Source: a virus (Duplodnaviria > Heunggongvirae > Uroviricota > Caudoviricetes). From it: a DNA stretch of 64,000 nt. The notes beneath the pieces were generated by a model. It was given only the letters and a program-made list of their open reading frames with translations. It had not been told where the DNA came from and did not search any database. Shown in pieces: positions 1,689 through 61,632 of this stretch. How positions within the stretch are numbered: the stretch's first letter is position 1; each line of letters begins with the position of its first letter. The stretch lies in IMG/VR virus record IMGVR_UViG_3300033156_000141, positions 19,092 to 83,091 of that record; one strand, 5' to 3'. The position numbers were made by a program, and so were the translations under genes.

Positions 1689-3050
1689 ATGCCTGTTCCA
1701 ATACAGCTAAAGATAATTCAATGGTACAAAGATCCTTCTTCATTTTTTAGAGACTTGTATCATCAAGAGCCATTTCCATATCAAGCTAGAGTTCTTTCGT
1801 ATCTTCCAGATCTGAATCTTAGAAGAATTCTTATACTCTCAGCTGCAGGAACTGGAAAGTCAAAGCTTTTAGCTTGTATCGCTCTTTGGCTAGCTTTAGT
1901 ATATAGTTACTATCATAGAAAGAAATACGATGTGGTTATAGTTTCTGGTTCAGCTGAGCAGTCTAGATCATTGTATGAGTATTCAGCTGTTCCTCTTAAA
2001 GAGAATGATATATTTGATGAAGTAATAGATGGTGAAGTCCTAAAGACAATTACAAGATTCAAAACAAAGTCCGTAGTAAGAGCTTTGCCATTATCTCTTA
2101 AAGCTATTCAGGGTAAGCATGTACCAGCTGTTATAATAGATGAAGCTGCACTAGTAGATGACTTTACAATAAATGATACTTATCGTATAGTTGGAGGATT
2201 CGAAGACTCTTTAATTATTCTAAGTGGAACTCCAATGGAGTATACATCAAAGTTCGTAGAGATGTGGTTGGATAAGAAGACATACCCAGATTATTTTGAT
2301 CTTTCAGAAGACAAGAGAACTCCTACTACATGGGCTAGATTTACTTGGTCAGCTATGGACTGTCCTAGATTTACAGAGGAAGAGATAGAAGAAGCTAGAA
2401 GAAATCTTACTGAGGAACAATTTAGAATATTCTGGGAAGGGATTCCATATCCAGTTACTAATACTGTGGTACCTATAGACGATATTAGAAAGTGTTCTAT
2501 TGGGATACACAAGTTTAGATATGATCCAAGTAGAAAGAATGGTAAGGTCATATTTGGTATAGACTATGGATATAGAGATTTATCTGTTATTGTAGTTGCT
2601 AACAAGATTGATGACATGTACAGAATTATTGATGTAGCTGAGTGGAATAGAACTAAGTATGAGAATATTCAGGATTGGATAGAAGCTTATGCCATGAGAT
2701 ACAGACCAGACTATGTGTTTGTAGATCTGAATCCTAAAGGGGAGTCTCAGAGAACAGTGGATAGACTACGGATGAAAGGAATAATGATTGAAGCTGTTGA
2801 CCTAGCTAAGGAGCTTGGAACACTACAAGTCAGAATGAAGACTTTGTTTGAGAAGGAGAAGATACTTGTACCAGAGGAATTTCAACCACTATTAAATGAG
2901 CTTAGACTGTATACATGGGATAAGAGAAAGGGAGATGATAGAGTAACTGCATTGATGCTTTCTCTAAGAGACATAGAGGAGAATAGACAGAGTACTGATA
3001 TCTATTACAAAGTAGCTAGAACAAGGAGAAGACCACTTGTCCTATTCTAG
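1689..3050 (+). CDS. terL: terminase large subunit (ATPase + nuclease)
   Basis: Walker A LSAAGTGKSKL, Walker B AVIIDEAALV, ILSGTP coupling motif, C-terminal RNaseH-like nuclease region with FVDLN; 453 aa. Confidence 0.8.
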   Translation: MPVPIQLKIIQWYKDPSSFFRDLYHQEPFPYQARVLSYLPDLNLRRILILSAAGTGKSKLLACIALWLALVYSYYHRKKYDVVIVSGSAEQSRSLYEYSAVPLKENDIFDEVIDGEVLKTITRFKTKSVVRALPLSLKAIQGKHVPAVIIDEAALVDDFTINDTYRIVGGFEDSLIILSGTPMEYTSKFVEMWLDKKTYPDYFDLSEDKRTPTTWARFTWSAMDCPRFTEEEIEEARRNLTEEQFRIFWEGIPYPVTNTVVPIDDIRKCSIGIHKFRYDPSRKNGKVIFGIDYGYRDLSVIVVANKIDDMYRIIDVAEWNRTKYENIQDWIEAYAMRYRPDYVFVDLNPKGESQRTVDRLRMKGIMIEAVDLAKELGTLQVRMKTLFEKEKILVPEEFQPLLNELRLYTWDKRKGDDRVTALMLSLRDIEENRQSTDIYYKVARTRRRPLVLF

Positions 3051-28222: not shown

Positions 28223-30508
28223 ATGTCTCCAGAAGAGAAGATTACTAAAGCTAGAGTTCAGATGATATCTAAACAGCCATTCTTTGGAGTGCTATGTATG
28301 TCACTGAGATTCAAACCAGATCCCAATGAAGATACAGCAGCTGTTACTCCTTATGGTGTTGTGTACTATAATCCAGACTATATCAAGAAATTGACTACTG
28401 AACAAGTAAAAGGATTGATATGCCATGAAGTAATGCATGTAGCTCTTAGACATCTAGAAAGAGAAGAAGGAAGAGATCATTTCAAAGCTAATATAGCTCA
28501 AGATCTAGCAATAAACCCACTAATACTACAGACATTTCAACTACCACCAGGAGCTCTATACATGAGAGAATATGAAGGTATGTCATGGGAAGAGATATAT
28601 GATAAATTATCAGATCCTAAGAGATTTGAGTGTAATGGAGACTGTGATAACTGTCCATTTAAACAGAAGAATCCTAATGGATTTGGTGGAGTACCATCAG
28701 TAGTTGTAGTGTGTAGAAAACGTGGTAGCTTAGACAAACATGTAACTAGAAAAGACATAGAAGAAGCTAGAAGAAAAGTAGAGGATGGTGTTATATCAAG
28801 GTCTGACTTAGATAAGCTAGGGATACCAAAAGGTGCTTTAGATGATAAAGAAACTGTGAATTGGAGAAAAGTACTGAAAGATGCATGGCATCATGCTAAA
28901 TGTTTAGATCCAAACACACAAATTCTAATGGCAGACAAATCCTTCAAAAGAATAACAGATGTCAAGAAAGGTGATGAAATACTAGGAATTGATGAGAATG
29001 GCAACATTGCTAAAGGAGTAGTCCTTCAGAAGTTCAGAACCATTGTTAATCAGAAAGTTACTATTGAAGCTAGTAATGGTTCAAAGCTGGTTTGTTCACC
29101 TGAGCACTTCATATATAATGGTAAATTCACTAAAGCTGAGGACTTAGACTTAAATACCACATTACCTATAGTAACTATGATTAGCAATGAGGAAGTGGAC
29201 TCAAGGAGAGATAGAATATCTGAAACAAAACTATGGAGTGAAGTCACTAACTCAGATATCAAAGGAGCTCAAGAGAACAAGAATATCTGTGTACAAGAAA
29301 GCTCACAGACTGGGACTGAAACCAAAACTAAAATCTCTAGAGACAATAAACTATTATCGTCCTCAAATATCAGAGAAGGATATAGCTTACTTAGCAGGAT
29401 TGATAGATGGAGAGGGAACAATAACTATCCAAGTCAGAAGGTCTCCAAGAAAGATAAGAGACAAATATGGAAGAATAATAAAGATTTATCAGAATCATTC
29501 TTATACTCCAATCATTTCAATATTCAATACTTCAGAGACTCTAATGGACTGGATGAGGAAACTGGGATGGAATGTACAAGTAACAAAACCAAAGAATCCA
29601 CGTTATCAGACCAAGTACCATTTCTACATTTGTGGATACGGGATTCTTCCATTTCTAGAACAAATAGAACCTTATCTAAGAATCAAGAAAATACACGCAA
29701 GGATATGCATTTTGTGGATTCTAGAGAGACTGGAACAGAACAGACTGGACAAACCAACAGAGAAGATGAAAGAGTACTTGAACGATCTTCAGATATTAAA
29801 CCAGAGAAAAGATGGGTATCAATTAAGCAAATTAAGAAGGAAGATACTAGAGAAGTATTCTATGATCTAAAGACAAGCTTGGGAAACTACATAGCAAATG
29901 GCTTTATTGTTCATAATAGTATGGGTAAAGCTCCATTAGGTATTGAAAGACTTATAGAAGACCTAGTAGAACCACAGATCAATTGGTTAGAATATCTACC
30001 TCAGCTTATTGTAAGACATATGCCTTATGACTACACATACTCTAGACCTTCTAAGAAATCGATAGCTGCTGGATACTATCTACCAAGTGTACTAAAGTCA
30101 GGAATAAAAGGAGTAGTAGTTATAGATACATCTGGCTCTATGAGTATGGAAGATTTAAGAGATGGATTATCACAGATAATAGGAATATTCAGAGAAGTAC
30201 CTAATGCAGAACTTACTATCTATAGCTGTGATGCAATGCTGTATGAAGCTCAAACTATTACATCAGAATACGACTTAAACACATTACAACTCAAGGGTGG
30301 AGGAGGTACAGACTTTAGACCTATGTTTCAGAAAATCCAAGAAGGTGGAGATGATGTTGATCTACTAATCTATATTACTGATGGATATGGAGAATATCCT
30401 ACACCAGATATGATAAATCCAAATATGACAGTAATATGGGTTATTACTAGAGATGGTGATGAAACTAGAGTACCAGACTACTTTGATCTAGTAGTGAAGA
30501 TAAAATGA
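28223..30508 (+). CDS. VWA-domain protein with N-terminal HExxH metallopeptidase-like domain (DUF2201-like), interrupted by an intein
   Basis: HEVMHVALRH (HExxH); MIDAS VVVIDTSGSMSMEDL; intein blocks CLDPNTQIL... and ...FYDLKTSLGNYIANGFIVHN|S. Confidence 0.75.
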   Translation: MSPEEKITKARVQMISKQPFFGVLCMSLRFKPDPNEDTAAVTPYGVVYYNPDYIKKLTTEQVKGLICHEVMHVALRHLEREEGRDHFKANIAQDLAINPLILQTFQLPPGALYMREYEGMSWEEIYDKLSDPKRFECNGDCDNCPFKQKNPNGFGGVPSVVVVCRKRGSLDKHVTRKDIEEARRKVEDGVISRSDLDKLGIPKGALDDKETVNWRKVLKDAWHHAKCLDPNTQILMADKSFKRITDVKKGDEILGIDENGNIAKGVVLQKFRTIVNQKVTIEASNGSKLVCSPEHFIYNGKFTKAEDLDLNTTLPIVTMISNEEVDSRRDRISETKLWSEVTNSDIKGAQENKNICVQESSQTGTETKTKISRDNKLLSSSNIREGYSLLSRIDRWRGNNNYPSQKVSKKDKRQIWKNNKDLSESFLYSNHFNIQYFRDSNGLDEETGMECTSNKTKESTLSDQVPFLHLWIRDSSISRTNRTLSKNQENTRKDMHFVDSRETGTEQTGQTNREDERVLERSSDIKPEKRWVSIKQIKKEDTREVFYDLKTSLGNYIANGFIVHNSMGKAPLGIERLIEDLVEPQINWLEYLPQLIVRHMPYDYTYSRPSKKSIAAGYYLPSVLKSGIKGVVVIDTSGSMSMEDLRDGLSQIIGIFREVPNAELTIYSCDAMLYEAQTITSEYDLNTLQLKGGGGTDFRPMFQKIQEGGDDVDLLIYITDGYGEYPTPDMINPNMTVIWVITRDGDETRVPDYFDLVVKIK
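28901..29917 (+). other. intein (339 codons) within the VWA gene; Cys1 at 28901, terminal HN at 29912..29917, +1 Ser
   Basis: Block A CLDPNTQILMADKS, block B SKLVCSPEHFIY (TxxH-like), block F/G EVFYDLKT...ANGFIVHNS in the host reading frame. Confidence 0.7.
29187..29870 (+). CDS. LAGLIDADG homing endonuclease with N-terminal HTH, encoded in the +1 frame inside the intein
   Basis: IAYLAGLIDGEGTITIQ; N-terminal HTH GEIEYLKQNYGVKSLTQISKELKRTRISVYKKAHRLGLK; a different frame from the host ORF, which nevertheless stays open. Confidence 0.65.
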   Translation: MRKWTQGEIEYLKQNYGVKSLTQISKELKRTRISVYKKAHRLGLKPKLKSLETINYYRPQISEKDIAYLAGLIDGEGTITIQVRRSPRKIRDKYGRIIKIYQNHSYTPIISIFNTSETLMDWMRKLGWNVQVTKPKNPRYQTKYHFYICGYGILPFLEQIEPYLRIKKIHARICILWILERLEQNRLDKPTEKMKEYLNDLQILNQRKDGYQLSKLRRKILEKYSMI

Positions 30509-30598
30509 AACCATTCTGTTAAAATATCTTATTAGTAGATTACCACCTAAGAAATAGAACCATTAGTTCTCAAATGTCTTTATGAGGAGGATGAACAT

Positions 30599-30814
30599 AT
30601 GGATATAAGACTACCAAATATTAGAATCTATGCTAGAATAGAATATATCTCTATGGATGCAGAGGGCAATATAGTTATAGGACTATCTAAACGTACAAGC
30701 AGAGATACTACTCTAGAGCTTCTAAGAGCATACGAAGGTAAGGAAGTCTACATGTTAGTAGCTGAAGGTAAATGGGCTATAGATAATAAGCACTCAAAGT
30801 CACAGGAGGAATAG
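30599..30814 (+). CDS. hypothetical protein (71 aa)
   Basis: ORF with SD GAGGAGGATG. Confidence 0.4.
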   Translation: MDIRLPNIRIYARIEYISMDAEGNIVIGLSKRTSRDTTLELLRAYEGKEVYMLVAEGKWAIDNKHSKSQEE

Positions 30815-30816
30815 AA

Positions 30817-31086
30817 ATGTGGGAAGAAGATAGCTCAGACAGACTACTAAAGATACTACTAGTGATTGGTATAATAGCTGGTGTGTCTCTAGGTATATTC
30901 TTTGGTACTATGTTTAGATCAGTAGATACAGGATACGGTGTACTATTAGTAGATCCAATGACTGGTACTATTTCTGATCCAATACTTGGACCTACATGGT
31001 TCATAAAGATGCCTTGGTTCAGAACAGTATATATTTATTATGCTACAGAGTCTGTGGGAATGTGGGGAGATAGAGTACTAGCATAA
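30817..31086 (+). CDS. SPFH/band-7 (stomatin/prohibitin-like) protein, N-terminal fragment (TM + start of SPFH domain)
   Basis: TM helix LLVIGIIAGVSLGIFFG then YGVLLVDPMTGTIS...GPTWFIKMPWFRTV, typical of the SPFH N-terminus; ends ...GDRVLA. Confidence 0.6.
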   Translation: MWEEDSSDRLLKILLVIGIIAGVSLGIFFGTMFRSVDTGYGVLLVDPMTGTISDPILGPTWFIKMPWFRTVYIYYATESVGMWGDRVLA

Positions 31087-31742
31087 GATTTATACAAGAC
31101 ACTTTCCAAGTATCTTGTATGAAATTCACAACAGAAGAACTAGAGTTTATCAAATTAAACCATTCTAAGATGACGATTAAAGAGATAGCACAAGCATTAA
31201 ACAAAGATCCTCGTAGAGTATCAGAAGCAGCTATTTCATTAGGTCTAAGGAAATATCCTAAACGTGGTACTAAAGTATCTAAAAGATGTGAACAGTGTGG
31301 TCAGCTCTTCTTCAAAGGATATAGAGAATCCAGATCTCATTTCAGCTCTAGAAGATTTTGTAGTGTTGAGTGTTTTAGAGAATATATGAAAGAACATAGG
31401 AATGAAACATTTCCTAGTAACATTCATGAGATGTGTGCAAATGGAAGAAGAGCTGAACGAGAGGCGTACAAATTACTTAAGAACGAATTTGATTTCTTAG
31501 CTAAGAGTGTCTCGATATGTGACTACATTGGAGTCAAGGACAACAAGATATACTTAATAGAGATTAAGTACAAGAATGCTAAGTTATCAAAGAAACAGAA
31601 GAAAGCATACAAGGTACTTGGAGAGTGTTATAAGGTTGTTAGAATTAGCTAGTACTCCTCCAAGGCACAGATCCATATGCAGAGTACCCCGCTATTAAGT
31701 GCTTTACCTCTGATCAGTTAGAAGCTACTATAGATATTATGG
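31085..31742 (+). mobile_element. putative group I-type intron (or HEG cassette) interrupting the SPFH gene, carrying nuclease ORF 31119..31652
   Basis: Exon sequences are contiguous at the protein level (…DRVLA|(L/M)VRWSLDP matches the SPFH consensus V.VDAVV.YRV.DP). The insert changes the frame (length not a multiple of 3), and begins after a U and ends in G if the boundaries are 31085/31742. Confidence 0.4.
31119..31652 (+). CDS. HTH + zinc-ribbon + PD-(D/E)xK-like nuclease (homing-endonuclease-like)
   Basis: N-terminal HTH EELEFIKLNHSKMTIKEIAQALNKDPRRVSEAAISLGLRKY is paralogous to the LAGLIDADG ORF HTH; CEQCGQ...CSVEC; C-terminal ICDYIGVKDNKIYLIEIKYK (D...E.K). Confidence 0.5.
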   Translation: MKFTTEELEFIKLNHSKMTIKEIAQALNKDPRRVSEAAISLGLRKYPKRGTKVSKRCEQCGQLFFKGYRESRSHFSSRRFCSVECFREYMKEHRNETFPSNIHEMCANGRRAEREAYKLLKNEFDFLAKSVSICDYIGVKDNKIYLIEIKYKNAKLSKKQKKAYKVLGECYKVVRIS

Positions 31743-32356
31743 TACGATGGAGTCTAGATCCGACTAAGCTCAAAGAACTTTACTTGTCATATCCAAACTT
31801 AGATTGGGAAGACAGAGCTATAGCTTCTACTGTGAGAGAGACTATTAGATTTGTTACTAAGAACTTTACAGCTACACAGATGATAACTAGAAGAGAAGAA
31901 GTGGCATATGCTATTCAAGAAGCTGTATTCGATGCTCTACATAGTACGGAATCTCTTAAAGGAGCTTTAGTGCATCTAGAGTTCGACCTCAGAAACATAG
32001 CATTACCAGAGAAATACATGCAAGCTATCGAAGATAAGATGGTAGCTGAGCAACAGAAGATACAAGCGGAATTTGAGAGAGAACGTATATTGGTTCTAGC
32101 TGATGCAGAGGCACAACAGAAGATACGAATAGCTGAAGCTGAGGCTGAGACTAGACTGATAGTTGCTAATGCTACTAGAGAATCTATAGAGATGATAGCT
32201 AGAGCAGCTGGTATCGATGATGCAGAGGACTTAGCAGAGCTGTATCTATATCTAGAAGCACTTAAGGAAATAGCACCAAATGTAGATGTTCTAATAGTAT
32301 CTACAGATGAACAGGGAAATCCAATAATATACTCTCTACCAAAGTCTGGTAAGTAG
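31739..32356 (+). CDS. SPFH/band-7 protein, C-terminal fragment
   Basis: VRWSLDPTKLKELYLSY..., IQAEFERERILVLADAEAQQKIRIAEAEAETRLIVANA = SPFH domain + characteristic AEAEA coiled coil. Confidence 0.6.
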   Translation: MVRWSLDPTKLKELYLSYPNLDWEDRAIASTVRETIRFVTKNFTATQMITRREEVAYAIQEAVFDALHSTESLKGALVHLEFDLRNIALPEKYMQAIEDKMVAEQQKIQAEFERERILVLADAEAQQKIRIAEAEAETRLIVANATRESIEMIARAAGIDDAEDLAELYLYLEALKEIAPNVDVLIVSTDEQGNPIIYSLPKSGK

Positions 32357-32394
32357 GGGTAGATGTACTAAGTACTACTACCCCTACATTTTTT

Positions 32395-32880
32395 ATGGTG
32401 AGTCTGATGTATCTATTATATGGCACTGAGAAAGTATTCAAAGTTACAGATATAAGCTTGACATTATTTGTAACTGGATTAACTACAGCAGTAAGTTCGT
32501 TATTATTCATGATAATGTACTGGTGTTCAAATATCTCAATTTATGAAGTCTGTATCTGTGTTCTAATTACTTCATTGGTATCTCTTCTTTTCTTTCTTAT
32601 ATCAACACCAAGAATAGAACGTTATGCTATTCCTTTATCTAAAGATAGGTATCTTGTGAAAACTTACTTGACTTTATCTGAAATACCATCTACTATTCGT
32701 AATTGTTTTGAGAAAGCTGAAATGCTAGGACTAAGACCTGAAATCTATGCTGTAGTTACATTTAAAGAGCTAATGAACTTCCGATATAAGCGAAGGAATC
32801 TCGTAGTTATATCAAGACTAAATGGTTTCAATAGTTGCTATCTTATATTCTCAAATGATCTAGAGGAGAAGATTAAATGA
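32395..32880 (+). CDS. integral membrane protein (161 aa)
   Basis: Multiple hydrophobic helices. Confidence 0.45.
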   Translation: MVSLMYLLYGTEKVFKVTDISLTLFVTGLTTAVSSLLFMIMYWCSNISIYEVCICVLITSLVSLLFFLISTPRIERYAIPLSKDRYLVKTYLTLSEIPSTIRNCFEKAEMLGLRPEIYAVVTFKELMNFRYKRRNLVVISRLNGFNSCYLIFSNDLEEKIK

Positions 32881-33179
32881 ATCGATATGGAGCTGAATTT
32901 TATATCGATGGATTGATTGGATATGTTCTATACGTTTTATCAATTAGGAATTTCAACAAGCGTTTAATACGACTTGAGGCAATTGATGAGATATTGTTAG
33001 AAAATCTTCTTTATCTCAAGAGAGTTATTAGAGAGATGATAGATGACAAGAAAATGACAGATAGTAAAGCTCTTAGTATACTATCAGAGTCATTACCTTA
33101 TAATGTTCAGAATTTTCTTTTTGAATTAAAGTCATTAAATGAGAAGGTTGGAAGACTTCTATTGATGTTTGAGCTCTAA
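32877..33179 (+). CDS. hypothetical protein (100 aa)
   Basis: ORF overlapping the previous stop (ATGA). Confidence 0.45.
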   Translation: MNRYGAEFYIDGLIGYVLYVLSIRNFNKRLIRLEAIDEILLENLLYLKRVIREMIDDKKMTDSKALSILSESLPYNVQNFLFELKSLNEKVGRLLLMFEL

Positions 33180-53127: not shown

Positions 53128-53329
53128 GATAGTTACTAAGTCTGGATACAAGATAATACAGGAAACATATAGAGTATGGAAGATCATATCTCCTAAAGGA
53201 AAGTTATACTATGTATGGTTGTGTAACAATAAGCTTGTATGTTCATGTCCTGCTTATTCGAAATATAGAGGACATTGTAAACACATAATGATGATGAATT
53301 TGTATGTATTTAAGGAGGGAATGAAATGA
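53117..53329 (+). CDS. SWIM zinc-finger protein
   Basis: CSCPAYSKYRGHCKHIMMM = CxCxnCxH SWIM signature. Confidence 0.55.
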   Translation: MVAEIVTKSGYKIIQETYRVWKIISPKGKLYYVWLCNNKLVCSCPAYSKYRGHCKHIMMMNLYVFKEGMK

Positions 53330-55209
53330 CAGAGTTAGAAGAAATTAAAGGAGTGGGAGCAAGTATAGCTGAACAGCTAAAACAAGCTGGGATTACATCA
53401 GCTGAAGATCTATCAGTAAGAGATCCAGAAGAGATCAAAGCTTTGCTTAATTGTTCACTAGCTAAAGCTAAGAAGCTTATTACAGCTGCCAAAGATGTAA
53501 CAGTCAATGCAGTACACATCTATACTGGTGAGGAACTTAATGAAGAGAGAAAAAGCAAGATTCAGAGAATCTCTACCAATAGCTCAGAGCTTGACAAGAT
53601 ATTTGGTGGTGGAGTACCTACTGATGCATTAACAGCTTTTACTGGACAGTTTGCTTGTATACCATACAATACTTGGATAGCTATTCCAACTAAAACTCTT
53701 AAGAATGGAAAGAAGAAATCATTCATAGAGCTTAGATATCTAAAGGAAGGAGACTCTATATTAGCTATTGATGAGAATGGTAATTTAGTAGAGGACAGAG
53801 TGATATACAAGAAACGAAGAAGACTATTCTATGATGAGCCATTTCTGACAATAGTAACTAATGAAGGTCATGAGCTAACAGTCACTGGAAATCATCCAGT
53901 ACTTACAGAGCATGGATTTGTCAGAGCTATGGACTTGAAAGTAGGAGATCACATAATCTGTCTAGATAATGTCCCAGAGAAATACAAGAGACATTCCAAG
54001 TTTTTGATTGGAGGAGTAACATCTGGTTCGTGGAAGAAAGGACATAAATTTACTGAGGAAGAAAAAAGGAAAATGAGTGAAGCTAGGAAAAGATTCTTTA
54101 GAGAGCATCCAGAGAGAGCTAGAGAAATCTCAAGAAAAGGAGCTATATCGCTTAGAAAGAAATTACTAAGAAGTATCCCAAAGAGTCAAATAGAGACTCT
54201 AAAGAAAGTATTTGGAATTGAACTAGAACATCCGATTAAGCTACCAGATAGATTAGTAATATCTGACATAGCGATTCCATCAAAGAAAATAGCTATTTTT
54301 AGTGACGGAGAATATTGGCACAAAGATAGAGAAAAAGATATAGAAGATACAAACAAACTAATAGAAGCTGGTTGGACTGTATATAGAATCACTGATTCTT
54401 CAATGAATTCGAATATACCTAAAGTATCAATAGAGTTCAAAGATCCAGTAATAGTTGAGATCAGAGAGGCTCAAAGAATAAATTATGTATGGGACATAGG
54501 GACAGAGAACCATCATACATTTATAGCTAATGGGATTGTTACTCACAATACTGGAAAGACACAGCTCTGTAAACAGCTGGTAGTTAATATGAAAAAACAA
54601 TACAACAGAAAATCAGTCTGGATAGAGACAGAACCACAGACATGTATACTTGATCGAATCAAGCAAATAGCTATAGCTAATGGAATAAATTTCGATCTAA
54701 AGAATGATATATACGTTATACCAGCTAAGTTCATAAAGACACCAGTACATCTGTTCAAAGCTTACGAAATGGTAGAGAGACTAATAACAGACAAGAAAGA
54801 GGATATCGGACTAATAGTAATAGATAGCTTCAATGCTCCTTTCAGAGCTGCATATGCTGGTAGAGAGACTCTGGGAAAGAGATCAGCTGAGTCTGGAAGA
54901 CACATTGGATTTCTTCAACAGCTAGCTTCACAATATAATATAGCTATAGTTATGACACTTCAAGTAATGGGAGTCCCAGACTCTGGACAACAGCTAGCTA
55001 GTATCAAGAGATATGGAATAAGAGATGCACCAGTAGCTGCACATGTAGTGAAGCATGGAGTAAACTTTCTAGTGTCTCTAGAACAAGTATCAGCTAACGA
55101 CAAGACATGGAGAGCTATTATAGCTGATGGTCCAGTACCTAGAAATGAATGTACGTTTATAATAGATGAGACTGGTATTAGAGACTTTACCAAGAGACGT
55201 GGAGTATAG
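53326..55209 (+). CDS. radA: RadA/Rad51-family recombinase with N-terminal HhH domain, interrupted by an intein in the P-loop
   Basis: EEIKGVGASIAEQLKQAGITSAEDL (HhH); Walker A split GQFA|intein|TGKTQLCKQL; Walker B GLIVIDS; 627 aa with intein, ~329 aa without. Confidence 0.85.
   Translation: MTELEEIKGVGASIAEQLKQAGITSAEDLSVRDPEEIKALLNCSLAKAKKLITAAKDVTVNAVHIYTGEELNEERKSKIQRISTNSSELDKIFGGGVPTDALTAFTGQFACIPYNTWIAIPTKTLKNGKKKSFIELRYLKEGDSILAIDENGNLVEDRVIYKKRRRLFYDEPFLTIVTNEGHELTVTGNHPVLTEHGFVRAMDLKVGDHIICLDNVPEKYKRHSKFLIGGVTSGSWKKGHKFTEEEKRKMSEARKRFFREHPERAREISRKGAISLRKKLLRSIPKSQIETLKKVFGIELEHPIKLPDRLVISDIAIPSKKIAIFSDGEYWHKDREKDIEDTNKLIEAGWTVYRITDSSMNSNIPKVSIEFKDPVIVEIREAQRINYVWDIGTENHHTFIANGIVTHNTGKTQLCKQLVVNMKKQYNRKSVWIETEPQTCILDRIKQIAIANGINFDLKNDIYVIPAKFIKTPVHLFKAYEMVERLITDKKEDIGLIVIDSFNAPFRAAYAGRETLGKRSAESGRHIGFLQQLASQYNIAIVMTLQVMGVPDSGQQLASIKRYGIRDAPVAAHVVKHGVNFLVSLEQVSANDKTWRAIIADGPVPRNECTFIIDETGIRDFTKRRGV
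53656..54549 (+). other. intein (298 codons) in the RadA Walker A loop; carries a Vsr-like PD-(D/E)xK endonuclease domain
   Basis: Begins CIPYNTWIAI..., ends ...IANGIVTHN followed by Thr; internal IAIFSDGEYWHKDREKDIEDTNKLIEAGWTVYRITD. Confidence 0.7.
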
Positions 55210-59058: not shown

Positions 59059-61632
59059 TTGTTATTGTCTCTTGTAACAGCTACATATAGAGTAGAGAAA
59101 GGAACTCCAGTTGTGTATCTGTTTACAAGAGACGAAGATGGAAATAAATTCATATTCAGGGACTCAAGCTTTGAACCATACTTCTTTATTCAGAGACAAG
59201 ATCTGTCGTATATTCAGTTTCCTGAAGACTACAAGTCCATGATTAAAAGAATAGAAACTGTTAGAATGCCTATGATGGGTGGTGGAGACCTAGCTGCTAA
59301 GATAGTAACTAAGATTCCAAATGATGTAGCTAAGCTTAGAAAATGGTTACATAGTAGGAAGACTAAGTATAGACCTAGAGGATTTGATACTTACGAAGCT
59401 GATGTACTGTTTGTTTATAGATATCTAATAAACAAAGGGATTCGTAATGGGATAGAAGTAGATGATCTATACTTTAGTCTTCATAAGCTTGACAGATATA
59501 TTCCATGGAATGACGATTACTGTAAACCAGCTGAGTGTCCATACTCAGTCAAAAGAGTACTGTTTATTGATATTGAGACAGTATCAGAAGCATCTAAACA
59601 GATTTCTGTTATAGGTATGTGGGATTCTTTCTCTAGACATTATGTACAGCTTTATTGGAAAGAGACTAGAGGTATTGATCATGAATATATTAGATACTTC
59701 AGAGACGAAGTATCTATGTTAAATGCTTTTATTGATTATGTAAGAGAGACAAGACCTGATATCATAGTATCGTTTACTAAGTTCGATATGTTGGTTCTTA
59801 TACGTAGAATGAGAGATCTTAAGCTACCATATAGAAAACTCTCTGATATATCAAAAGTATACGTCAGCTCAGAAAAAGAAGAGGAAAGCTCTGAATCTGA
59901 TAATAAGAAAAAGTCTAGAAGATCCGACTATCTAAGTATAGGTGGCATTGAATACATAGACTTACAAGAGGTATATGAAAAAGTAGAGGGAGGACAGAGA
60001 TTTCAGACTCTGGATTATATTTCTAAAGTAGTACTTGGGTATGGAAAGATACCTCTGAAATATAGCAGTATAGGAGAGACATGGAAGCATGACTATAAGA
60101 ATGTACTTTACTATAACCTTAGAGATGTCCATCTTATCAAGGAAATAGACAATAAGCTAAAGCTAATTGATGAGTATCTTGATCCTATTAGACGTAAGGT
60201 TGGATGCTCCTTCAACGATGCTATGTATGCAGCTAGAGTAGCTGATATTTCTTATCTTAGATTGTTACATGGCAAGATAATACTGAGAACAAGACCAGTA
60301 GAAAAAGTTAGAAGAAGATATACTGGAGCTATAGTGCTAAGAGCTATACCTGGAATACATGATTGGGTTGTATGTGTGGACTTTAAGTCTCTATATCCAT
60401 CGATTATTAGAACATTCAATATTGGATGGGATACTTATGATGCCTCTGGTGACATTCCACTAGAGGGAGCTAGATATGTGTCGGATACCAAGAGCTGGAC
60501 TGTTCAGCTACTAGAGGAAATGGCTCCTATACTAGAGGAGAACAAGAGACAACAAAAGATAGCTAAAGAAAAAGGTGATTGGGAGCTATTAAATGCTCTC
60601 AAACGAAGAAGACTTGCTTACAAAGCTATAGTAAATGGAATCTATGGATTCTTTGGTTTTCCAGGTGATCCAGAACGACATCTACCAGCATCTAGATTCT
60701 ATTCAATAGCTATAGCTGAGAGTATTACTACAGCTGCTAGAAACATACTAAAGAAGTCGATTGAGATATGTAAAGAAATAGGATATGAAGCTATAATGGG
60801 TGATACTGACTCACTATTTGTAAAGATGAAAACTGGTTCTGAAGAGGAAGCTGAACAGATAAGAGATGAGATACAGTCAAGACTTCATGAATATATTAGA
60901 AATCACTACAATGTAGATCCAAGCTTGATAGTTCTAGAAATAGATGAGATCTATAAAAGACTGATTGTACTAGCTAAGAAAAGATATGCTGGTAAGACAA
61001 TAGATGGAAGAAAGGTATTCAAGGGACTAGAGATTGTAAGAAAAGATCAGTCTGAGCTAACGATTGAAACTCAGGAAGGACTTATTGATCTAATGTTAAA
61101 TGGAGCTAATAAACAGAGAATAAAAGACTTTATAGAGAAACAGATTAGGAAGCTTGACAAATATCCTCTAGAGAAGGTAGGTATAGCTGTAACACTGACC
61201 AAACCTAGAACAGAATATACAAGCATGGTTATACAGCTCAAAGCACTGGAATTTGCTAATCAAATACTTGATCTAGACATTCAGGAAGGAGAGAGATTCT
61301 TCTATGTACCAATTAAAGAATATCGAAATAAGCCAATAACAGTAACAGTGAAGCTTAAAGAGCCAATAGAGATAGATGAGAAAGATCCAAAGACTGGTAA
61401 GAATAAGATCATTAAAAATATAACAAAGACTGTCTATTCTGATGTAGCTGGGTTCAGAGAAGCTTCTGATCTAGAAAAGGCTCCTGGTATTGTTATAGAC
61501 AGAGATAGACTTCTTGAACGTACTATTAAGAAAAAGACAGAAGACTTATTAGCTTTAATAGGGTTATCATGGGATGAGGTAATGAGAGGTGCTAGGGGTC
61601 AGACTTCTTTATCTTCATTCTTTAAGAGGTGA
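59059..61632 (+). CDS. family B DNA polymerase
   Basis: Exo I VLFIDIETV, motif A VVCVDFKSLYPSII, motif B KRRRLAYKAIVNGIYG, motif C IMGDTDSLFV; 857 aa. Confidence 0.85.
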   Translation: MLLSLVTATYRVEKGTPVVYLFTRDEDGNKFIFRDSSFEPYFFIQRQDLSYIQFPEDYKSMIKRIETVRMPMMGGGDLAAKIVTKIPNDVAKLRKWLHSRKTKYRPRGFDTYEADVLFVYRYLINKGIRNGIEVDDLYFSLHKLDRYIPWNDDYCKPAECPYSVKRVLFIDIETVSEASKQISVIGMWDSFSRHYVQLYWKETRGIDHEYIRYFRDEVSMLNAFIDYVRETRPDIIVSFTKFDMLVLIRRMRDLKLPYRKLSDISKVYVSSEKEEESSESDNKKKSRRSDYLSIGGIEYIDLQEVYEKVEGGQRFQTLDYISKVVLGYGKIPLKYSSIGETWKHDYKNVLYYNLRDVHLIKEIDNKLKLIDEYLDPIRRKVGCSFNDAMYAARVADISYLRLLHGKIILRTRPVEKVRRRYTGAIVLRAIPGIHDWVVCVDFKSLYPSIIRTFNIGWDTYDASGDIPLEGARYVSDTKSWTVQLLEEMAPILEENKRQQKIAKEKGDWELLNALKRRRLAYKAIVNGIYGFFGFPGDPERHLPASRFYSIAIAESITTAARNILKKSIEICKEIGYEAIMGDTDSLFVKMKTGSEEEAEQIRDEIQSRLHEYIRNHYNVDPSLIVLEIDEIYKRLIVLAKKRYAGKTIDGRKVFKGLEIVRKDQSELTIETQEGLIDLMLNGANKQRIKDFIEKQIRKLDKYPLEKVGIAVTLTKPRTEYTSMVIQLKALEFANQILDLDIQEGERFFYVPIKEYRNKPITVTVKLKEPIEIDEKDPKTGKNKIIKNITKTVYSDVAGFREASDLEKAPGIVIDRDRLLERTIKKKTEDLLALIGLSWDEVMRGARGQTSLSSFFKR

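Follow-up and report, generated by a model that had tools for sequence, protein, structure and literature searches.

A nuclease-bearing insert in the SPFH gene of a probable archaeal tailed virus has the features of a bulge-helix-bulge intron

The subject of this analysis is an SPFH (band-7) membrane protein gene and the insert that interrupts it, both on the plus strand of a 64,000-nucleotide stretch of Caudoviricetes DNA (positions 19,092 to 83,091 of IMG/VR record IMGVR_UViG_3300033156_000141), referred to hereafter as the window. Three open reading frames (ORFs), each in a different frame, cover the region: an N-terminal SPFH fragment called at 30817..31086, an ORF of 177 amino acids at 31119..31652, and a C-terminal SPFH fragment called from an ATG at 31739 to 32356. 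The initial annotation read them as one gene split by an insert with a nuclease ORF, and the interruption, with the C-terminal part in another frame, is confirmed here. It also placed the insert at 31085/31742 (~0.65 kb) and took it for a probable group I intron. The comparison with related SPFH genes that it proposed was carried out and yielded an intron-less, uninterrupted allele as well as many homologs, and both the borders and the class of the insert had to be revised.

A search with the provisionally joined SPFH sequence returned hundreds of uninterrupted SPFH proteins of ~315-365 amino acids, and the ten that were aligned all read GMWGD|GTDPYAEYPA at the junction. One of the uninterrupted proteins (P0001) is 97-99% identical and is encoded on contig L001, which lacks the insert exactly. 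By blastn, positions 1-625 of L001 correspond to 30448-31071 of the window and positions 626-2080 to 31664-33128 (95-96% nucleotide identity), and the intron-less junction reads ...ATGTGGGGAGAT|GGCACAGATCC... Because the alignment stops at 31071 and resumes at 31664, the insert is exactly 31072..31663, or 592 nt. The junction GAT|GGC is unambiguous, and no target-site duplication was found at the insert in the comparison with L001. Since these borders are set by L001 and the uninterrupted homologs, they are independent of any folding.

By the ORF list, the homolog alignment and the match to L001, exon 1 comprises 85 codons (30817..31071) and ends in ...GMWGD with the last codon GAU. The fragment as called continues into the insert and stops at 31084-86, so the RVLA of the supposed exon end GDRVLA, together with the stop codon, is intron sequence. 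Exon 2 (31664..32356, 230 codons plus stop) begins GTDPYAEYPA... with the codon GGC; it is defined by the homolog alignment, by blastn to L001 and by Pfam Band_7, which the exon-2 frame matches at E = 1e-16 over profile positions 48-173. This frame is open from 31649, well before the called ATG, and the upstream extension reads ...GTDPYAEYPAIKCFTSDQLEATIDIMVRWSLDP, which is still SPFH domain. Twenty-five conserved codons (GTDPYAEYPAIKCFTSDQLEATIDI, 31664..31738) precede the first start codon in the exon-2 frame at 31739. The earlier statement that the two called fragments reconstitute the domain with nothing missing is thus incorrect, as an exon 2 that starts at 31739 omits these codons. No ribosome-binding site for exon 2 was found. 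Removal of 31072..31663 restores an SPFH ORF of 315 amino acids. An alternative join at an AGTACT repeat (31079|31657) is also in frame but was rejected, as it adds five residues (RVLLQ) that are absent from every homolog. Immediately 3' of the SPFH stop codon, a GC-rich hairpin (GGGGTAG...CTACCCC) followed by a T-run (32357..32395) is the likely transcription terminator of the gene.

The RNA around the two borders folds into the motif known as bulge-helix-bulge (BHB). The central helix of 4 bp is formed by GGAG at the end of exon 1 (31066..31069) and CUCC near the 3' end of the intron (31658..31661), and is present in 4/4 alleles (see below). It is flanked by two 3-nt bulges, A-U|A at the 5' border (31070..31072) and A-A|G at the 3' border (31662..31664). 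The inner helix (h') joins the ends of the intron, with GAGUACUAGC (31073..31082) pairing with GCUAGUACUC (31648..31657) in 10/10 Watson-Crick pairs. The outer helix (h) joins the exons, with UGUG of exon 1 (31061..31064) pairing with CACA of exon 2 (31666..31669) in the RNAfold structure and in 4/4 alleles, and between it and the central helix G31065 is mismatched with G31665. Farther into the intron, a 24-bp long-range stem connects 31098..31121, which includes the nuclease start codon (31119-31121) and a local 5' hairpin, to 31606..31629, within the last codons of the nuclease ORF. RNAfold gave one and the same minimum-energy structure for the junction in a mini-substrate and in the full 712-nt pre-mRNA segment, and the mini-substrate scored z = -4.8 against shuffled sequences.

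According to PMC2738675, the archaeal splicing endonuclease cuts between the second and third residues of a bulge, which places the predicted cleavages after U31071 and after A31663. The borders defined by L001 coincide with both of these sites. The topology is also that described in PMC4090602 for archaeal pre-tRNAs, where exon-1 bases pair with the intron in the central helix. At one fixed pair of positions, the probability of finding a central helix and an in-register 10-bp inner helix by chance is ~2e-6, and ~1.6e-7 with the outer helix included. The junction structure is a near-canonical archaeal BHB (3-4-3), slightly relaxed at the outer helix.

Further intron-bearing alleles were found for the same site. 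In a search of 5.8 billion proteins the intron nuclease had a single close relative (P0122, 68% identity), and in the contigs that encode it (L005 and L006) a related SPFH gene is interrupted at the same codon junction by an intron of 589 nt. The inner helix of L005 (GGAUACUAGG/CCUAGUAUCC) differs from that of the window in three base pairs, each changed on both sides, and a base-by-base comparison of the long stem revealed two further compensatory changes. Full-length folds of both introns share a rod-like long closing stem.

A scan of metagenomes for the 5' junction pattern, followed by a tblastn screen, identified two more alleles, L010 and L029, whose SPFH exons share ~45-58% identity with the window protein. 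The DNA of L029 is virus-like and syntenic, with AAA-ATPase and DUF2201 genes as in the window. At the insertion site of the window intron these alleles hold ORF-less mini-introns of 31 nt (L010, 710..740) and 34 nt (L029, 2175..2208, minus strand), whose ends match those of the window intron (AGAGUACUAG...CUAGUACUCCUCUAA) and which consist of the BHB hairpin alone. Each shifts the SPFH frame by one and splits the gene into two ORFs, so that gene callers would annotate it as truncated or frameshifted. Splicing at the predicted sites yields intact ORFs of 315, 304 and 305 amino acids, all collinear with uninterrupted homologs. In an alignment of the four distinct alleles, 72/72 pair cells were standard pairs, compared to 29-51% when the partners were slid, and three double changes were present.

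The spliced frames of L010 and L029 gave a dN/dS of 0.11 (nonsynonymous to synonymous substitution rates) at a dS of 0.63. Both exons are under purifying selection while the frame-breaking insert is retained. From this ratio and the intact spliced ORFs we infer that the interrupted SPFH genes are functional, and a frame-breaking insert kept under such selection requires removal at the RNA level. Every intron-bearing allele keeps the exon-edge bases GGGGAGAU / GGCACAGAU needed for the helices. At the exon edges, L187 (intron-less, from a 107.9-kb relative, with 92% protein identity) and the likewise intron-less L188 have other bases at synonymous sites, and outer-helix complementarity is absent from them. 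The intron is patchy among close relatives, being absent from L001, L187 and L002-L004.

Other searches for copies were negative. Patterns built on the nuclease protein gave an HTH-only (helix-turn-helix) match in viral contigs and none in metagenome contigs. With the DNA pattern of the 5' junction, viral contigs and, among the matches listed, genome contigs yielded chance matches only, and a hairpin pattern run on viral contigs recovered a paired central helix in 2/117 cases, which is the chance level. The end motifs of the intron do not recur within the window.

As the initial annotation had recognised, the ORF inside the intron (31119..31652, 177 amino acids) encodes an N-terminal HTH, a zinc finger and a C-terminal PD-(D/E)xK-like domain. 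The zinc finger is of the zf-FCS type (a weak Pfam match), and the C-terminal domain resembles Hjc and VRR-NUC nucleases, its VRR_NUC match lying below the family cut-off. Hjc is the archaeal Holliday-junction resolvase. Among distant relatives P0133 alone is full-length, and it matches Pfam Hjc at 5e-8. Residues D135 and E148-x-K150 are conserved in both nuclease copies. A structure model gave the C-terminal topology alpha-beta-beta-beta-alpha-beta at low confidence (pLDDT, the model's own confidence score, 65); a fold search with this model matched only the HTH, and a sequence search of the PDB was uninformative. Similar HTH modules recur in many metagenomic proteins. The HTH of the intron protein falls into PHROG family 323, as does a LAGLIDADG ORF at 29187..29870, although phmmer of the window with the HTH did not recover that ORF. 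Judged from its domains, the protein is probably a homing endonuclease of the PD-(D/E)xK class, and homing activity is suggested by this domain make-up together with the patchy distribution of the intron.

In L005 the exon-1 frame terminates at a stop codon overlapped by the AUG of the longest nuclease ORF (UAAUG), and in the window 32 nt separate this stop codon (31084-86) from the nuclease AUG downstream. Ribosomes that leave exon 1 and open the stem that holds the start codon could translate the nuclease from unspliced RNA.

We conclude that the insert is very probably an archaeal-type BHB intron in a protein-coding SPFH gene of a tailed archaeal virus. In the pre-mRNA, GGAG at the end of exon 1 would pair with CUCC near the 3' end of the intron, leaving the two 3-nt bulges, while the intron ends pair with each other over 10 bp, extended by the 24-bp stem, and exon 1 pairs with exon 2 (UGUG/CACA). 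Cuts after U31071 and A31663 would then be made by EndA, the tRNA-splicing endonuclease of the host, and the host 3'-phosphate RNA ligase (RtcB) would join GAU to GGC to give an mRNA for the normal SPFH protein of 315 amino acids. The intron would probably be released as a circle. In co-infecting relatives, the Hjc-like PD-(D/E)xK nuclease would most probably cut intron-less alleles and so spread the intron, and the mini-introns of 31 and 34 nt would be ORF-less descendants that keep only what splicing requires. A broader proposition, to which we incline with some reserve, is that archaeal viruses carry mobile introns in protein genes that borrow the tRNA-splicing endonuclease and ligase of the host instead of using a ribozyme, that these owe their spread to an Hjc-like (PD-(D/E)xK) homing endonuclease not recognised before, and that they decay to mini-introns of ~30 nt.

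Several observations weigh against the assignment to BHB introns. With 4 bp only and with G facing G beside the 3' bulge, the outer helix makes the motif slightly relaxed, and in the DNA the intron ends form a 10-bp terminal inverted repeat of the kind also expected of a DNA-level element. The significance of the motif depends entirely on borders that had been fixed in advance: when BHB motifs were sought genome-wide under loose rules, 446 matches were obtained in the real sequence and ~410 in shuffled sequence, with no discrimination, and a scan for short-hairpin BHB motifs gave 9 real matches compared to 4-12 shuffled. As real and shuffled counts are alike, no further BHB introns can be claimed within the window. 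The covariation is weak, with only four distinct alleles and 15/500 shuffles attaining the observed score. For the mini-intron segments the gain in folding over shuffles is modest (z = -1.4 and -1.9), and the minimum-energy fold of L010 draws the central helix slightly differently. The archaeal host is itself a deduction, made from archaeal-type gene content and the names of homologs. Neither EndA nor RtcB was found among the 66 window ORFs of at least 100 amino acids, and the virus would therefore depend on host enzymes. Splicing is predicted from sequence and fold.

The inverted repeat bears on the alternative that survives best, although we consider it improbable: a mobile element acting at the DNA level, with a nuclease gene, 10-bp terminal inverted repeats and derivatives like miniature inverted-repeat transposable elements, which leaves the SPFH gene inactive or made as two separately translated halves. 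The ends GAGTACTAGC / GCTAGTACTC form a perfect inverted repeat, PD-(D/E)xK nucleases can serve mobile DNA, and selfish elements abound in the genome (two inteins and one HNH gene). Phage genes split by free-standing homing endonuclease genes can indeed be expressed as two halves. The insert, however, lacks a target-site duplication, and the repeat stops short of the insert ends and sits precisely in BHB register, next to an exon-intron helix of 4 bp and bulges of 3 nt. Separate translation of the halves is opposed by the 25 conserved codons of exon 2 that have no start codon and no ribosome-binding site. Nor does a DNA element account for frame-shifting versions of 31 and 34 nt that persist under selection on the spliced frame (dN/dS 0.11), or for exonic bases required for pairing that are retained in insert-bearing alleles only.

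Removal or skipping by another route, namely translational bypassing (as in T4 gene 60), programmed frameshifting or the action of some other RNA-processing enzyme, is rather less probable still. A stop codon does follow soon after the would-be take-off region, and the mini-inserts contain a hairpin. Take-off and landing codons are nevertheless unmatched (GAU vs ...CAA|GGC), the gap of 592 nt far exceeds any known bypass, and none of these models predicts a geometry that follows the BHB rules exactly.

A self-splicing group I (or group II) intron with a homing endonuclease gene, as initially annotated, is the least credible of the three. The clean interruption by a nuclease-bearing intron stands, exon 1 does end in U, many phage group I introns carry a nuclease ORF, and the small 5' hairpin (ACAAGA/TCTTGT) exists. 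The last base of the intron is A (...CUCCAA), not the omega-G that group I would have and that had been claimed, and the 5' end (AGAGU) is not the GUGYG of group II. The Rfam check that the initial annotation had called for found no group I, group II or other relevant family at E<=10 in 30000-33000 (Infernal), and, over the whole window, no intron family at the gathering score. Outside the ORF there are only 58 nt (47 before and 11 after), and the homologous inserts of 31 and 34 nt at the same site are too short for ribozymes. An intein, already discounted in the initial annotation, is rejected as well, given the change of frame, the stop codon at 31084-86 and the absence of a Hint match in the insert.

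Archaeal rRNA genes contain introns with LAGLIDADG homing endonucleases, among them that of the Desulfurococcus mobilis 23S gene (I-DmoI) and those of Thermoproteales 16S genes. The window intron resembles these in bearing an ORF, in being bounded by a BHB motif and in having a long closing stem. It also shares presence/absence polymorphism, ORF-less derivatives and, as predicted here, excision by the host splicing endonuclease. Whereas the rRNA introns lie in cellular rRNA genes and encode LAGLIDADG enzymes, the window intron lies in a viral protein-coding gene and encodes an HTH, a zf-FCS finger and an Hjc-like PD-(D/E)xK domain.

The pre-mRNA intron of cbf5 was reportedly described by Watanabe in 2002. 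Like it, the window intron is of the BHB type, lies in a protein-coding gene and disrupts the frame, so that it must be spliced. The predicted cut position between the second and third bulge residues is also the same, and the mini-introns (31/34 nt) are similar in size. Differences from cbf5 are the near-canonical motif (3-4-3) in the window, the nuclease gene in one form of the intron and the viral nature of the interrupted gene. In Yokobori 2009 (PMC2738675), the cbf5 introns of Crenarchaeota are cellular, short and ORF-less with mostly relaxed motifs, and the authors report having looked for an ORF-containing version. For archaeal viruses, the literature searched offered only unproven 12-bp inserts, cited in the same paper.

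Similarity to the group I introns of phage (T4 td and nrdB; PMC3984707) would extend to a mobile intron with an endonuclease in a viral protein-coding gene, to a patchy distribution among close relatives and to phenotypic neutrality through RNA splicing. Those introns, in contrast, are self-splicing ribozymes in viruses of bacteria, and the window intron has no ribozyme core and would need host enzymes. With archaeal tRNA introns (hBHBh', position 37/38) it shares an identical motif topology, two 3-nt bulges and an outer helix between exons (PMC4090602); the tRNA introns differ in being 11-129 nt long, in lying in a structured RNA and in having no protein gene. BHB-type cleavage in an archaeal mRNA 5' untranslated region is represented by one Haloferax case (PMC7714728).

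In the literature searched, BHB introns or cleavages are thus known from tRNA, from rRNA (where some have LAGLIDADG genes), from cbf5 mRNA and from one Haloferax mRNA, and mobile endonuclease-bearing BHB introns from rRNA genes only. That incomplete literature contained no report of a BHB intron in a viral protein-coding gene or with such a nuclease gene, which is absence of evidence only. A viral BHB intron with a nuclease gene would extend archaeal mRNA splicing to viruses. If the proposed mechanism is correct, such introns would be the archaeal-virus counterpart of phage group I introns, and BHB splicing of mRNA would be used well beyond the single cellular case of cbf5. Intron-less, full-intron and mini-intron alleles would offer a natural series for the gain, homing and decay of this intron class, and a new endonuclease architecture would be added to the repertoire of homing enzymes. 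Gene callers can be expected to misannotate such viral genes as truncated or split, as in the window, L010 and L029. For splicing endonucleases from uncultured archaea (Bathyarchaeia, for example), the motif also provides a simple substrate that can be tested.

The genes of the window form an array on one strand, and relatives of its genome are contigs of 108-128 kb. The window encodes a large terminase (1689..3050), a calcineurin-like phosphoesterase (19536..19976), an ATP-type RNA ligase (PF09414; 22802..24040), a RadA protein with an N-terminal helix-hairpin-helix and a Rad51 core (53326..55209), and a family B polymerase (59059..61632), as well as an ERCC4 nuclease, DNA methylases and radical SAM proteins. 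RadA and ERCC4 are of archaeal type, and the nearest named cellular homologs of the SPFH protein are from Bathyarchaeota. By these gene affiliations the window probably derives from a tailed virus of an archaeon in the Thermoproteota/Bathyarchaeia group. With the RadA extein as query, only unnamed viral or metagenomic relatives were recovered, which pointed to no host lineage, ARAGORN found no tRNA genes in the window, and blastn against phage GenBank records gave no match.

Two inteins are present elsewhere in the window. The first lies in a DUF2201 metallopeptidase/VWA gene (28223..30508) and extends from Cys227 to Asn565; the corresponding gene of relative L002 (1958..3244) has no intein. 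Inside it, the LAGLIDADG ORF at 29187..29870 has its own ATG and an N-terminal HTH and is read in a different frame. Over the 228 codons of this ORF the intein frame has 0 stops and the third frame 31, and alternative frames in this genome encounter a stop about every 9 codons and were never open for more than 57 codons in 21 genes (P ~6e-13). The ORF looks like a selected overlap, in which a homing endonuclease gene of the free-standing type is nested out of frame in a mini-intein. In the minimum-energy fold, 29162..29195, upstream of the LAGLIDADG start, pairs over ~25 bp with 29898..29930, the last intein codons. The BHB-like 3' "site" of this pairing is the intein/C-extein junction, and the join would be out of frame. 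No convincing in-frame motif for a second BHB intron was found around this ORF or around the HNH gene described below. The second intein interrupts the P-loop of RadA (GQFA|C...HN|TGKT) and contains a Vsr/DUF559-like nuclease domain; the closest RadA relative (P0272, 91% identical, on a 107.9-kb contig) lacks it.

The HNH gene (18795..19451) encodes an HNH_3 + NUMOD3 endonuclease and lies between imperfect direct repeats of ~48 nt (region 18699..19560). The repeat consists of the ribosome-binding site and the first 11 codons (MKTWFTSDTHF) of the downstream metallophosphoesterase gene. Its two copies differ mostly at synonymous sites, and from the downstream copy (TTG start at 19449) the frame continues into GHANIIKYCNRPF only after a +1 shift at CAC-TTT-C-GGT.

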